Positions 40,369 to 44,585 of a stretch of DNA of 45,262 nucleotides are shown here, in pieces (position 1 is the first letter of the stretch; each line of letters opens with the position of its first letter). The stretch spans positions 1-45,262 of the forward strand of contig QKFK01000194.1 in the NCBI GenBank assembly GCA_003252195.1, read 5' to 3'. The notes below the pieces were generated by a model that had not been told where the DNA came from, searched no databases, and saw only the letters and a program-made list of their open reading frames with translations. Source of the DNA: Rhodospirillales bacterium (lineage in GTDB: Bacteria; Pseudomonadota; Alphaproteobacteria; QKFK01; SZUA-500). The translations under genes were made by a program, and so were the position numbers.

Positions 40369-41112
40369 TTATGGTGTGTTTAACAACGAGTTATGTAAGC
40401 CAATTATATATCTTCGTAAATTGTAGTATTCATCGCTCCTGCGTAATACCTTGAGTTTGCAATAATTTATATCGTATTCGCGCTCTCCTTTTATGCTTAG
40501 ATGGCAGGCGTTAACTTTCATCTCATAAATATAGTTACGTAATTCTCGTAATTCATCTAGCCCTGGTTGTTTGGTTTTCGCAAATAACTTTTGAGTTAGT
40601 TTTTCTGCTTCTATTGATTGTTCGTATGCTGCGTCGTATAAGTCTTGTTCTGTAAAATTAAAATTTCTTTTTTGTGGCTTTGATACCCATTTATCTTTTG
40701 ATAGGGAGTAGGCCCCAGATGAAACAGGCTCTGTGTCGAATATGCAATAATCAATTCGTTTACCTGCAACTGCGAAGTTATAACCCATAAAAACCAGTTC
40801 AGCGACAATGCAATCTAATAATCTTTGTAAATAATAAGATCGAATGTCTGGGTGGTAGGCTTCTATTTGTACGTCAATATCACTTTTATCTTTATATAAA
40901 TAGCTTGCTGAGCTTCCTTGTAAATATACATCTTTTATCACAATATTAGGAATTCTCTTTTTTAGCTGATCTACTACAAATTGTCCGACCGTAAACAAGG
41001 CTGGTTTTACTTCTTCTTTAAGCTGATGATCAGAATTAAAGAGTGCAGAAGGAAGAGTGTCTCTGACATTCATGCATGATTTTACGGTGTTCATAAGTTC
41101 TTCGTTTATCAT
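40369..41112 (-). CDS. Pol-beta-superfamily nucleotidyltransferase-like protein, paralogue 1 of 4
   Basis: Motifs, in track numbering: LQG72S73SASYLYKDKSD84ID86VQI, then RID127YCIF, VSSGAYS and EYDINY. I start it at ATG 41112, 7 nt after the paralogue-2 stop; the track starts at TTG 41130. It aligns along its whole length with the three upstream ORFs. Confidence 0.65.
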   Translation of the reverse strand: MINEELMNTVKSCMNVRDTLPSALFNSDHQLKEEVKPALFTVGQFVVDQLKKRIPNIVIKDVYLQGSSASYLYKDKSDIDVQIEAYHPDIRSYYLQRLLDCIVAELVFMGYNFAVAGKRIDYCIFDTEPVSSGAYSLSKDKWVSKPQKRNFNFTEQDLYDAAYEQSIEAEKLTQKLFAKTKQPGLDELRELRNYIYEMKVNACHLSIKGEREYDINYCKLKVLRRSDEYYNLRRYIIGLHNSLLNTP

Positions 41113-41119
41113 GTTTATC

Positions 41120-41911
41120 TCACAGATCAATTGAATTTTTGTGGTGTTTGAACATAGGGTTTTCTACAACACTTTTATGTTGAATAATCATGTAGTTTCT
41201 TAGCTCGTTATATTCACCACATTTTCTAAATGTTCTAAAAGCTGTGTAGTTAAAATCATACTCTTTTTTTCCGTTTGAGGCACTGTGATAGGCGTTTAGT
41301 CGCATGTTATCAAAATATTCTCTCATTTTATCACATTGCTCAAAGGTGCAATTATCTTTATATTCTTCGCTAAGTTCTCTTATAAAATTTTCAGTGTCTT
41401 TTCTCATTTTAATAACGGCGTCACAGATATCACTATATGAAAACTCAAATTCTTGTCTTACAGGTTCTTCTATCCATTTGCGATTTAATACAGAATAAAT
41501 ACCAGAGCTAATTCCTTTTATGTATGAAAATGCAGTGTAATCTACGAGTTTGTTCTTAATACTGGTTTTGTATCCAAGAAGCATTAGCTCGTATGATATA
41601 GCATCTAGCATACCTTCTAATTCTTTGGCATTAAATTTGGGGTGTGAGCATAAAATATGTAAATCTAAATCGCTTTTGGGGTTATATGTATAATTTACAG
41701 AGCTTCCTTGGAATACAATGTCATCAAGTGTAATGTTTGGAATCATGTCTTTAACGTAATCATACACAAACTCGCCAATACGCAAAAACGATGGTTGCAT
41801 ATCTTTATGTAATTGTGAGCTACTATCAAATAAAAAGCTGTTTAATTGCCTATTATTCGTCATGCATTCTATTGCGGTCTTTTGTATATTTGTAAAGTTT
41901 ATTTCAGCCAT
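41120..41911 (-). CDS. Pol-beta-superfamily nucleotidyltransferase-like protein, paralogue 2 of 4
   Basis: FQGSSVNYTYNPKSDLDLHI, LVDYTAF, ISSGIYS, EYDFNY. 263 aa. Confidence 0.65.
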   Translation of the reverse strand: MAEINFTNIQKTAIECMTNNRQLNSFLFDSSSQLHKDMQPSFLRIGEFVYDYVKDMIPNITLDDIVFQGSSVNYTYNPKSDLDLHILCSHPKFNAKELEGMLDAISYELMLLGYKTSIKNKLVDYTAFSYIKGISSGIYSVLNRKWIEEPVRQEFEFSYSDICDAVIKMRKDTENFIRELSEEYKDNCTFEQCDKMREYFDNMRLNAYHSASNGKKEYDFNYTAFRTFRKCGEYNELRNYMIIQHKSVVENPMFKHHKNSIDL

Positions 41912-41985
41912 TGTTTTAATCCAGATAACATAATTTAATATTATATTCTTGAATTGTTTAAAACTCTTATAATCTTTGAAGAAAC

Positions 41986-42747: not shown

Positions 42748-42750
42748 CTT

Positions 42751-43530
42751 TTAGTGTCCTTGTTTCGTCGGCAATGACTTTATAAAATTATTGTTGTACA
42801 TAGATATAATGAAATCACGCATATTATGTAATTCTCCAGTGTTACGGAGTAGCTTTAAAGCAGTATAATCAAGGTTATATTCATTGCCGTTACTTTTGGC
42901 AGATGCTATTGCGTGCTTTTTTATATTTTCAAAGTAGTCACGCATTTTGTTGCAATTATCAATCGATATGTATTGGTTAGATTCTTTGGGAAGAGAGTTA
43001 ATAAAATTCTCTGTTTCTATTGATATATTATATGTTTGTTTGATTAATTCAGCTTTTGAAAAATTAAAATTGCCTTTTGTTGGTTTTCTAACCCATGTGT
43101 CACTGATTATTGAGTAAATGCCAGATGTTGCCCCAATATCTTCCTTTTCACGAATAGAGTAATCTATTGTTTCTCCGCTAGGTAGCTTGAAGTTATAACC
43201 CATACCACTGAGATATGTGCCTAGGTTTATTAATAGATTTGAAAAGGATTCTTTGTCCATATTGTTGTTCTCGCATAGAACAATCAAATCAACATCACTT
43301 TGGGGGTGGTATATATAGCTTGATAACCCACCTTGTATGATGACATCTATTATTTGGGTGTTAGGAATTGATAGATTAATGTTTTTCTCTAAAAAATGAT
43401 ATATGCGCGAGCACAATTCCTTTGTATTGGGGTATAGTTGCATATTTGTATTAAATAAGGTTGCGCTAACCTTATCATTTATGCGCATGCATATCTCTGC
43501 ATCTTTATCAAACTTTTCATATATATTCAT
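42751..43530 (-). CDS. Pol-beta-superfamily nucleotidyltransferase-like protein, paralogue 4 of 4
   Basis: IQGGLSSYIYHPQSDVDLIV, TIDYSI, ATSGIYS, EYNLDY. The start is uncertain. ATG 43530 (MNIYEKFDKDAEICM...) aligns best with the N-termini of the other paralogues. The track uses TTG 43566, which overlaps the upstream gene by 7 nt. Confidence 0.6.
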   Translation of the reverse strand: MNIYEKFDKDAEICMRINDKVSATLFNTNMQLYPNTKELCSRIYHFLEKNINLSIPNTQIIDVIIQGGLSSYIYHPQSDVDLIVLCENNNMDKESFSNLLINLGTYLSGMGYNFKLPSGETIDYSIREKEDIGATSGIYSIISDTWVRKPTKGNFNFSKAELIKQTYNISIETENFINSLPKESNQYISIDNCNKMRDYFENIKKHAIASAKSNGNEYNLDYTALKLLRNTGELHNMRDFIISMYNNNFIKSLPTKQGH

Positions 43531-43559
43531 ATATATGTTACTATCATATTTTATAGTTT

Positions 43560-44585
43560 TTAGCAACTACCATAAGAGCAACTAGCTGAATATGAGGCGT
43601 TCGAATAACAAGTACATGATTTATAGCTTGAGTTATATGAACATGTTGAAGCTGTATATCCAGTATCACAAGATGTTTCTGTGTATCCTGCTTCACTACA
43701 TTGCTGAGCCGTATCAGTATGACATGCTACTGCAGTGCATTTTAAATATGCGCTGTTATATGGGCATATGCCTGCTAAGCTGTATCCAGATGAGCAATAT
43801 CCTTGAAGGTCTTCAGGTGGCTCGTAATCATATCCAGCGAGAATACATTGTTGGGCCGTATCTGTGTGGCAATCTGTGTGGCAAGTAGCTGCTTCTGAGT
43901 AACATGAGTCACACATATAATAGCTTGAACTGTATGCGCAAACAGAGCCTAAGCTATAGCCTGTTGGGCAATCATTGGATGATGTTGCTGTATATCCACT
44001 TGCTGTGCACACAGTAGCGGCTGACGCACATGACACGTATGAACTATTATAAGGGCATATTGAGCCTAAGCTATACCCACTTGAACCCGTTGGGCAATCA
44101 TTAGATGTTAGTGCTGTATATCCAGCATCAGTGCATTGTTGTATAGTGTCTGTGTGGCAGTTTGAGTAGCAAGTACATTTTTTATATGTCGAATTATAAG
44201 AGCAACTTGCTGTTGTGTAACCTGTAGCACAAGATGTTGCTGTATATCCAGCGTCAGCACATTGTTGAACTGTGTCAGTGTGGCATGTATCTACGAACGC
44301 GTGGCAATTGCTATAGCAATTTTCAAGAGTTGCGCCTGATGTGTCGCCTGAACTATCCGTTTTTGTGCCGATCATTCCACCTAAATATTGTAGCCTTGCT
44401 GTTTGGCGGCCAGTGATGGATTTGTCTGGGGTAAGTGAGCTTTTGTAATTAAGAGGAGAATCATTATCTTTAGCAGGGATGTCTAGTTTTATTAGTTCTG
44501 CTTCGCTTGAACTTCCGGATAAAACTATACCACCAGCAATGCATAGTAGAGATAGAGGGTACATTTTAGTGTGTTCTTTTGCCAT
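43560..44585 (-). CDS. Exported cysteine-rich repeat protein (five modules of about 45 aa, CHTDTxQQC...AGYT...C.TGY...C.YNS.Y..C)
   Basis: 341 aa. AGGAGA lies 7 nt upstream of ATG 44585. The N-terminal signal-like segment is MAKEHTKMYPLSLLCIAGGIVLSGSSS. By my count there are 32 Cys after the signal region. Cys, Ser, Thr, Tyr, Gly and Ala dominate and Lys/Arg are nearly absent. The repeats are also visible at the DNA level. Confidence 0.7.
   Translation of the reverse strand: MAKEHTKMYPLSLLCIAGGIVLSGSSSEAELIKLDIPAKDNDSPLNYKSSLTPDKSITGRQTARLQYLGGMIGTKTDSSGDTSGATLENCYSNCHAFVDTCHTDTVQQCADAGYTATSCATGYTTASCSYNSTYKKCTCYSNCHTDTIQQCTDAGYTALTSNDCPTGSSGYSLGSICPYNSSYVSCASAATVCTASGYTATSSNDCPTGYSLGSVCAYSSSYYMCDSCYSEAATCHTDCHTDTAQQCILAGYDYEPPEDLQGYCSSGYSLAGICPYNSAYLKCTAVACHTDTAQQCSEAGYTETSCDTGYTASTCSYNSSYKSCTCYSNASYSASCSYGSC

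Follow-up and report, generated by a model that had tools for sequence, protein, structure and literature searches.

Arrays of phrog_36119 nucleotidyltransferases behind exported cysteine-rich proteins: a putative two-part system in distant bacterial lineages

A block of five co-directional genes in contig QKFK01000194.1 of a Rhodospirillales bacterium (assembly GCA_003252195.1; positions 1 to 45,262, the whole stretch analysed here and hereafter called the window) encodes a predicted exported, cysteine-rich repeat protein followed by four nucleotidyltransferase (NTase) paralogues. Comparison with other loci shows this arrangement to be a conserved two-component module, in which one or more predicted Sec-exported, disulfide-type Cys-rich modular proteins are encoded immediately upstream of two to seven same-strand NTases of the family phrog_36119. 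Because the same pairing recurs in distant bacterial lineages, the module looks like a real and hitherto undescribed two-part system within the Pol-beta NTase world, and it is reasonable to infer from gene arrangement that the two gene types work together. An earlier note on the window had described an orphan operon of an exported 32-cysteine repeat protein and four diverged NTase-fold paralogues. The protein descriptions were borne out, the former by a signal peptide and 32 mature Cys residues, and the latter by the agreement of BLASTP, catalytic motifs, the phrog_36119 profile and AF2/Foldseek comparison. The label "orphan" did not stand, since the NTases are full-length members of a family with 3256 representatives and the pairing is found again in other loci. 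The note would have been refuted if the two gene types never co-occurred elsewhere, and they were found together in three deeply separated lineages; its statement that the pairing corresponds to no described system agrees with the literature searches and is strengthened by this conserved co-occurrence.

The four downstream proteins are full-length paralogues with 26–34% identity, and the least similar pair could still be aligned by BLASTP over 242 residues (26% identity, E=1e-35). All four keep the hG[GS] motif, a DxD motif 9–13 residues further on and a third Asp. QGG or QGS is followed by SDVDL, CDIDI, SDLDL or SDIDV, and the third Asp, on a neighbouring beta-strand, is invariant in 4/4 paralogues (IDY, IDF, VDY, IDY), so that paralogue 1, for example, reads QGG...SDVDL...IDY. 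The AlphaFold2 (AF2) model of paralogue 1 (m3ab08d621942; predicted local distance difference test score, pLDDT, 75) comprises an N-terminal NTase core of helix-strand-strand-helix-strand topology and a C-terminal helical domain. Nearly all of its top 50 PDB matches in Foldseek were Pol-beta-type NTases or polymerases, including ANT(9), TUT7, Cid1, Pol mu, KNTase, LinB and DrrA, with weak scores (E>=1e-2; template-modelling score, TM, ~0.2), and predicted viral structures gave 11 significant matches over most or all of the query, nearly all of them to unnamed Caudovirales proteins. Pfam matches of the window NTases, to PF22600, PF01909 and PF18765, were all sub-threshold, among them that of paralogue 3 to PF22600 (poly(A) polymerase palm; E 2.3e-5, below the gathering threshold), and some relatives pass the cut-offs for PF01909, PF18765 and PF22600 (P0012). 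Nothing significant was returned for the window NTases by NCBIfam or PADLOC. Taken together, sequence motifs and modelled fold confirm the predicted membership of the four paralogues in the Pol-beta NTase superfamily.

Within this superfamily, profile comparison places the NTases in phrog_36119, a large family of unknown function. The profile was matched end to end by all four paralogues (~225–245 of 247 positions), with E values of 2e-16, 1.8e-14, 2.3e-13 and 1.7e-15 for paralogues 1 to 4, respectively. When 1.84 billion cluster representatives were searched in full with an HMMER profile, 3256 proteins scored E<=1e-3 and 1889 of them E<=1e-10. Other searches returned less: a k-mer protein search with paralogue 3 found only paralogue 3 itself, an alignment-based query returned just 4 proteins, and neither a relative beyond the GS-DxD core nor a close solved structure emerged when PDB sequences were searched with profiles built from 4, 22 and 76 sequences. 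Short segments did match ribonucleotide reductase R2 and an MBP-ClpS fusion in the PDB, and these matches were rejected as chance. The segment G.YSL..D.W...P.K.EF.F, at NTase profile positions ~130–173, repeatedly and weakly matched an R2 helix (E 0.02–0.5) and was likewise taken as a chance match. Two scans of genome contigs, based on one or two peptide patterns, and a pattern-based metagenome scan for the window clade gave no match, and relatives can be missed by scans of this kind. Literature searches by accession and keyword found no description of the NTase family or of the pairing.

We defined the module by an exported protein of at least 8% Cys whose gene directly precedes two or more NTase paralogues on the same strand. 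This arrangement was found in the window, in L002, in L004–L008 and in the human-gut loci L013–L019, L021 and L027, which represent three deep lineages (window/L002, L004–L008 and gut). L002 (GCA_003251935.1), a contig of 4.7 kb, encodes the best Cys-repeat homologue (P0152, 37% identity) followed by three same-strand NTase genes, the third of which is cut by the contig end, so that at least three NTases are present. In L004–L008, recovered from two NCBI metagenome-assembled genomes and three Logan assemblies, four signal-peptide proteins with 8–15% Cys are encoded in a row and directly followed by two NTases (273 and 247 aa); the block is bordered by hslVU-hemN and a DMT transporter at one end and, at the opposite end, by a trypsin-like gene, comM and rpsF-rpsR-rplI. 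In the human-gut lineage (GC 0.47), hflC-degP-holC are followed by one exported 543-aa protein with 11.8% Cys and then by the NTase array, which in the longest contigs comprises five NTase genes and a 504-aa double-NTase fusion, that is, seven NTase domains. Nothing is conserved further downstream of the gut array, and the other loci from the gut-lineage scan contained array fragments only. The trypsin-like gene of L004 (9636–13172, minus strand) encodes a protein of 1178 aa in which numerous 'GRYVDGKFVEE'-like repeats are combined with a Trypsin_2 domain at the C-terminus; in L004–L007 it converges on the end of the NTase pair, and the L008 contig ends short of it.

Between the three deep lineages the NTases share 19–31% identity and the flanking genes are unrelated, which argues that the adjacency is old and has been maintained. 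No window, L002 or L004 copy, and no readable gut copy (gut copy 3 excluded), has lost the catalytic G[GS], DxD or third D/E, and the module NTases of the window, L002, L004 and gut loci carry no signal peptide or leader. When the window and the cellular loci L001–L027 were surveyed for open reading frames (ORFs) no shorter than 150 aa and with 6% Cys or more, only module proteins, their homologues or antisense shadows were found. The 80 viral loci each contain exactly one NTase domain and never an array; no plausible exported Cys-rich neighbour was seen in them, the Cys-rich ORFs there being antisense to the match and apparently non-coding.

The repeat protein contains 33 Cys residues, one in the signal peptide and 32 in the mature part, and the N-termini of its L002 homologue and of P0153 are of the same signal-peptide type. 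Its five modules follow the pattern CHTDTxQQC-xxAGYT-C-xGY-C-xYNSxY-C, and each of them is recovered by a module hidden Markov model (HMM; domain E 4e-10 to 5e-16). As DNA sequences the repeats are old, and a single 12-bp duplication can be detected. This perfect tandem duplication at 43860–43884 (ATCTGTGTGGCA, plus strand) is the gene's sole recent repeat and accounts for the CHTD-CHTD doubling with which module 4 begins. Homologues of the repeat protein are few (P0152–P0156). It had no match in Pfam, NCBIfam, PADLOC, PHROG or PDB and is absent from phage records, and its AF2 model (pLDDT 35) is too poor for fold comparison.

A chain of significant matches via L012 indicates that the window and gut Cys-rich proteins are homologous: the window protein matches the first gene of L012 (E 4.8e-16), which matches the second (E 6.7e-12), which in turn matches the gut protein (E 2e-63). 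L012 (GCA_004558265.1) encodes two predicted exported Cys-rich proteins in tandem (13–1062 and 1284–3278), the first with window-type modules and the second with the gut-type repeat C..G.G.SCDGKY.SC.C. Since both module types occur in these tandem genes, the comparison shows the predicted Cys-rich proteins to be mosaics of interchangeable module types.

phrog_36119 has members in Synechococcus myophages (cyanophages), in Lak megaphages and in phages of Maribacter and Pelagibacter. Their annotation there is 'hypothetical', and one phage homologue bears the label 'aminoglycoside nucleotidyltransferase'. The window NTases share with the family an N-terminal L-x-P-x-[LI]-[FW] helix, the motifs G[GS]..Y.Y...SD[IL]D, [VI][DE]. 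and G.YS.....W...P, and a C-terminal helical domain. Two types were separated in a neighbour-joining tree: type A, with a C-terminal EY..Y..R motif, comprises all window and L002 copies, L004_a, gut_1 and gut_5, and type B, without this motif, comprises L004_b, gut_2, gut_4 and both halves of the fusions. The window thus contains type A only, and its NTases form one clade with the L002 copies and P0005 that was not found in viral contigs. Paralogue 3 has an orthologue in L002 (~65% identity; dN 0.26, dS saturated), and L002_a and L002_b are a younger duplicate pair (43% identity). The existence of two subtypes, together with recurring tandem-domain proteins, suggests that the NTases may work as dimers or hetero-oligomers. 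Proteins of ~500 aa with two tandem NTase domains recur (P0012, P0021 and the gut 504-aa protein), and for P0012 and the gut protein, the two that were placed in the tree, each half belongs to type B. The subtype split and the tandem-domain proteins were noted in L015 8760–10274, L004 8001–9565, P0012, P0013, P0021, P0027 and P0034.

Sec-type signal peptides are present in the family members P0048, P0073, P0089 and P0107, and double-glycine-type leaders (ELSDEELEQVVGG), like those of bacteriocins and prochlorosins, in P0035, P0053, P0065, P0102 and P0144, the matches of the latter to bacteriocin-leader models being sub-threshold and weak. Leaders of either kind would mean export of an enzyme that depends on nucleoside triphosphates (NTPs). 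Elsewhere the NTase domain is fused to ART-PolyVal, ParBc_2, GNAT or metallopeptidase domains, and in IMG/VR viral contigs it usually lies at the extreme N-terminus of proteins of 1200–2085 aa; all five giant viral proteins scanned carry Amidoligase_2 (PF12224) above the Pfam cut-off, and one carries ParB_N. Such NTase-amidoligase architectures resemble injected polyvalent phage proteins (PMC5512222), and the NTase family described in that work is a different, minimal one from Firmicute conjugative elements. Ser/Thr protein kinase genes were noticed twice, adjoining the Cys-repeat homologue in L003 (84–2156) and ~2 kb from the NTase homologue of Synechococcus phage S-CRM01 (L009 1–1906); their proximity is probably a coincidence.

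With respect to how the two components could cooperate, our preferred and tentative reading, to which we assign a probability of roughly 0.35, is that Tyr, Ser or Thr residues of the repeat protein are nucleotidylylated by the NTases while it is still unfolded and has yet to be exported by Sec. The NTases would transfer a nucleoside monophosphate (NMP) from NTPs onto the hydroxyls of these residues in the cytoplasm, different paralogues would recognise different short module motifs (GYT, GYS, YNSxY), and the modified protein would then be exported by Sec and fold with disulfides as a surface or extracellular protein. The logic would be similar to that of operons for an adhesin and its dedicated modifier, or of a precursor followed by tailoring enzymes. 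What favours an enzyme–substrate relationship is a gene order that does not vary, the putative substrate preceding the modifiers, as well as the tight gene coupling and the recurrence of the pairing whatever the neighbourhood. Analogy points the same way: the Pol-beta-fold protein modifiers GlnD, GlnE and DrrA, which gave weak, sub-threshold matches only, act on Tyr, and cytoplasmic modification of adhesins by adjacent enzymes has precedent. In a wider form, the proposal would amount to a new protein-maturation pathway, in which paralogous NTases install NMP at defined Tyr, Ser or Thr residues of a Cys-rich preprotein that is then exported and displayed, and phages would have adopted the enzyme family for modifying host targets; we regard this wider picture as doubtful.

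Several observations weigh against the modification reading. O-nucleotidylylation of Sec substrates is, to our knowledge, without precedent. Phages carry the family in abundance without a Cys-rich partner, so that its general substrate cannot be the repeat protein, and the leaders on some members hint at roles outside the producer's cytoplasm. Copy numbers of Cys-rich and NTase components do not track each other (1+4, 1+ at least 3, 4+2 and 1+7 in the window, L002, L004–L008 and gut loci, respectively). On the short contigs L003, L011 and L012, Cys-repeat homologues are present and no NTase adjoins them, which indicates that the pairing is not obligatory for each copy. For the Cys-rich proteins of L004, the resemblance to that of the window is limited to the motif C..LGYT..C..CPF..C, without HMM support; this motif was defined after the sequences had been seen and gave 0 false hits in 1533 control ORFs.

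The same leaders and fusions could also be understood if the NTases were an array of effectors acting in another cell, either a eukaryotic host or a competitor, with the Cys-rich protein as adhesin or binding partner, the two being co-regulated and not enzyme and substrate. Tandem arrays of paralogues are a common trait of effector families, certain members of phrog_36119 carry Sec signal peptides or double-glycine-type leaders, and the family is found in 'delivered' settings, that is, N-terminal in giant phage proteins with amidoligase and ParB_N domains and fused to ART-PolyVal, ParBc_2, GNAT and metallopeptidase domains as is typical of injected polyvalent proteins (PMC5512222). We nevertheless consider delivery rather unlikely, since the NTases of the window, L002, L004 and gut loci have no such signal, no secretion-system gene lies in or next to any locus, no immunity-like small genes are interspersed between the paralogues, and the strict order with the Cys-rich gene first would be left unexplained. 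An unlikely explanation, in turn, is that two unrelated functions travel together through shared regulation or an accessory cassette, namely an envelope protein and ANT-like NTases acting on small molecules or RNA ends (detoxification, or tailing of metabolites or RNA). The best whole-length fold matches do include ANT(9), ANT(4'), ANT(3'')(9) and LinB, which have the same two-domain layout and size of ~250 aa, as well as the RNA tailing enzymes TUT7, Cid1 and GLD-2; PF22600 is the best Pfam match, one phage homologue bears the aminoglycoside annotation mentioned above, and the phage homologues need no Cys-rich partner. These fold matches are weak, however (E>=1e-2, TM ~0.2), the window proteins match no NCBIfam ANT/Lnu model, and there is no sign of a cassette or mobile element, the gut-type NTase P0009 having no plasmid match in a search that covered P0009, not the window proteins. 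It would also be hard, without selection for linkage, to keep adjacency and order at NTase identities of at most 31% and among differing flanks.

An anti-phage or conflict module is, in our assessment, very unlikely. In such a module the NTases would be abortive-infection or nucleic-acid-modifying enzymes, the phage homologues counter-measures and the exported protein a surface decoy or sensor. NTase-based defence is well known (CBASS, AbiE, MenT, HEPN-MNT), the family is common to phages and bacteria, and PADLOC gave weak candidate matches to PDC-M63A and PDC-S09 (E 1e-3 to 2e-2). These matches are not significant, however, the known partner genes are absent, the loci lie among housekeeping genes and not in defence islands, arrays of 4–7 active paralogues would be unusual, and no known defence system includes anything equivalent to a Sec-exported, disulfide-rich repeat protein. 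The conserved adjacency favours a functional link, whether protein modification or delivery of effectors, over a generic defence module.

Should the NTases modify the exported protein, host-associated bacteria, a human-gut lineage among them, would possess a new type of surface-protein modification; otherwise, the pairing would still be a conserved one that has been missed by the catalogues of defence, toxin and resistance systems. The NTase family comprises thousands of sequence clusters, is widespread in cyanophages, megaphages and marine phages, and has neither a known function nor a solved structure or Pfam model. The bacterial operons are the first context that offers a candidate partner, or even a substrate, for phrog_36119, so that a partner test in these operons could assign a biochemical activity to the whole family.

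Features of the block and of related viral loci (positions of the window unless a locus is named)
Feature	Position	Strand	Remarks
Block of five co-directional ORFs	40369-44585	minus	
Exported Cys-rich repeat protein gene	43560-44585	minus	341 aa; ribosome-binding site AGGAGA
Signal peptide, ~29 aa, MAKEHTKMYPLSLLCIAGGIVLSGSSSEA	44499-44585	minus	n-h-c layout read from sequence, no canonical lipobox
Five ~40-aa repeat modules, residues 101-326	43608-44285	minus	module alignment and HMM
NTase paralogue 1	42751-43566	minus	271 aa (TTG start) or 259 aa (ATG start at 43530)
NTase paralogue 2	41986-42747	minus	253 aa
NTase paralogue 3	41120-41911	minus	263 aa; orthologue in L002
NTase paralogue 4	40369-41130	minus	253 aa (TTG start) or 247 aa (ATG start at 41112)
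AT-rich ORF-free leader, ~500 nt	44586-45087	minus	
Promoter-like site TTGATT-18-TATAAT	44731-44760	minus	~150 nt upstream of first start codon; consensus scan, 10/12 matches
Bidirectional intrinsic terminator hairpin, common to convergent ppiD	40109-40137	both	13-bp stem between A and T runs
Giant viral NTase ORF (within L034-L107)	L047 5935-12189		
Giant viral NTase ORF (within L034-L107)	L058 5890-11184		
Giant viral NTase ORF (within L034-L107)	L104 5926-11037		

The layout of the block was mostly as the earlier note had reported it. The five minus-strand ORFs lie where they had been placed, and the junctions, in transcription order -7/+29, 3, 74 and -11/+7 nt (alternatives reflecting TTG/ATG starts), agree with the values given, to which -11 nt is added for the last junction if paralogue 4 starts at TTG; an independent gene call for paralogue 4 in the Logan contig L001 uses the ATG start. 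The AGGAGA ribosome-binding site, 6 nt before the first ATG, and the AT-rich ORF-free leader were confirmed, as were the convergence of the distal end on the ppiD terminator, now resolved as the bidirectional hairpin, and the neighbouring housekeeping run eno-kdsA-pyrG-secG-tpiA, then ppiD. That hairpin is the sole terminator-like hairpin on the minus strand within or just downstream of the block, with none internal, and the promoter-like site is a pattern match only, such matches being no commoner here than in shuffled sequence. The five genes probably form one transcription unit, as the tight spacing, the lack of an internal terminator, the promoter-like site and the shared distal hairpin all fit. 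The suggestion of foreign or fast-evolving DNA, based on GC content, had to be abandoned: G+C at third codon positions (GC3) is 0.28–0.32 in the five block genes vs 0.21–0.30 in housekeeping genes, and other 1-kb segments of the contig are as AT-rich as the block.

The leader had no Rfam family match and showed no conservation with the L002 and L011 leaders. The window is the entire contig, so the upstream side of the block consists of the leader and then the contig end at 45262; no adjacent integrase, transposase or tRNA was found around the block. Upstream of the leader, the C-terminal end of a further co-directional ORF (45088–45262, minus strand; ...KFQVSTTRITKSFEKEMDKRQSVIDDKYGVEAMIKKCSKVDGKNKTAQIMKLIDSK*) runs off the contig end and might represent a regulator or a further component of the locus. 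In L002 and L011, the position upstream of the Cys-repeat gene is instead taken by a divergently transcribed Cro/CI-type helix-turn-helix protein. Further away in the window, a 2-hydroxyacid dehydrogenase gene (28821–29771) lies within the lpxD-fabZ-lpxA-lpxI-lpxB cluster and overlaps the lpxI start by ~40 nt; the organism uses LpxI rather than LpxH.

Known systems with Pol-beta-type NTases differ from the module in gene content, size or partners, and the earlier note's judgement that the block has no CBASS, HEPN or AbiEi partners and no resistance-cassette or mobile-element context was upheld by Pfam, NCBIfam, PADLOC and the gene neighbourhood. The resistance enzymes ANT(9), ANT(4')/KNTase, ANT(3'')(9) and LinB are, like the window NTases, ~250 aa in length with a Pol-beta domain and a C-terminal helical bundle, and ANT-type enzymes are among the top fold matches (Foldseek E>=9.5e-3, TM ~0.2). 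NCBIfam ANT/Lnu models, however, gave no match to the window proteins even at E<=1, and in contrast to ANT cassettes the block comprises four paralogues behind an exported protein with no resistance or mobile context; an ANT resistance cassette was therefore rejected. GlnD, GlnE and Legionella DrrA/SidM have the same fold and motifs but are large multidomain proteins with known partners (PII, glutamine synthetase and Rab1), and their matches are far below threshold: the GlnD model scored 11 bits (E 0.05) vs a cut-off of ~1250, and DrrA reached E 0.07–0.9 in PDB sequence searches and a Foldseek probability of 0.13. The G-S...DxD core of MNT/MntA aligns with the window NTases over ~45 residues, as their best PDB and NCBIfam sequence match, yet remains below the cut-off (12.8 bits vs 60), and MNT proteins have ~100–140 aa without a C-terminal domain, whereas the window NTases have 247–271 aa with one. 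HEPN-MNT was thus rejected, the five proteins containing no HEPN domain and the NTases being too large.

CBASS was rejected because no PADLOC Cdn match and no effector or Cap2/Cap3-like genes were found in the operon, and AbiEii/MenT (DUF1814) because AbiEii was not among the Pfam, NCBIfam and PADLOC matches and no antitoxin-like gene is present. The RNA-ligase-associated Pol-beta NTase family RlaP (PMC7824862) was likewise dismissed, with no such Pfam match and no ligase gene in the locus. TUT7, Cid1 and GLD-2 (PF22600) provide the best Pfam match and many of the top fold matches; compared with them, the window NTases are smaller and have neither an RNA-binding domain nor an RNA-repair partner. 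The phage members of phrog_36119 itself are single-copy and often embedded in giant multidomain proteins, in contrast to the four-copy array of the window. A Sec-exported repetitive surface protein encoded beside cytoplasmic enzymes that modify it before export is known from the Aah/AIDA-I, TibC/TibA, HMW1C/HMW1 and SRRP glycosylation loci, where the modifiers are glycosyltransferases and not Pol-beta NTases, with no sequence relationship to the module. On predicted gene content and domain architecture, the comparison shows the module to be distinct from CBASS, HEPN-MNT, AbiE/MenT, RlaP and ANT cassettes, each of which fails at least one of the defining features tested.

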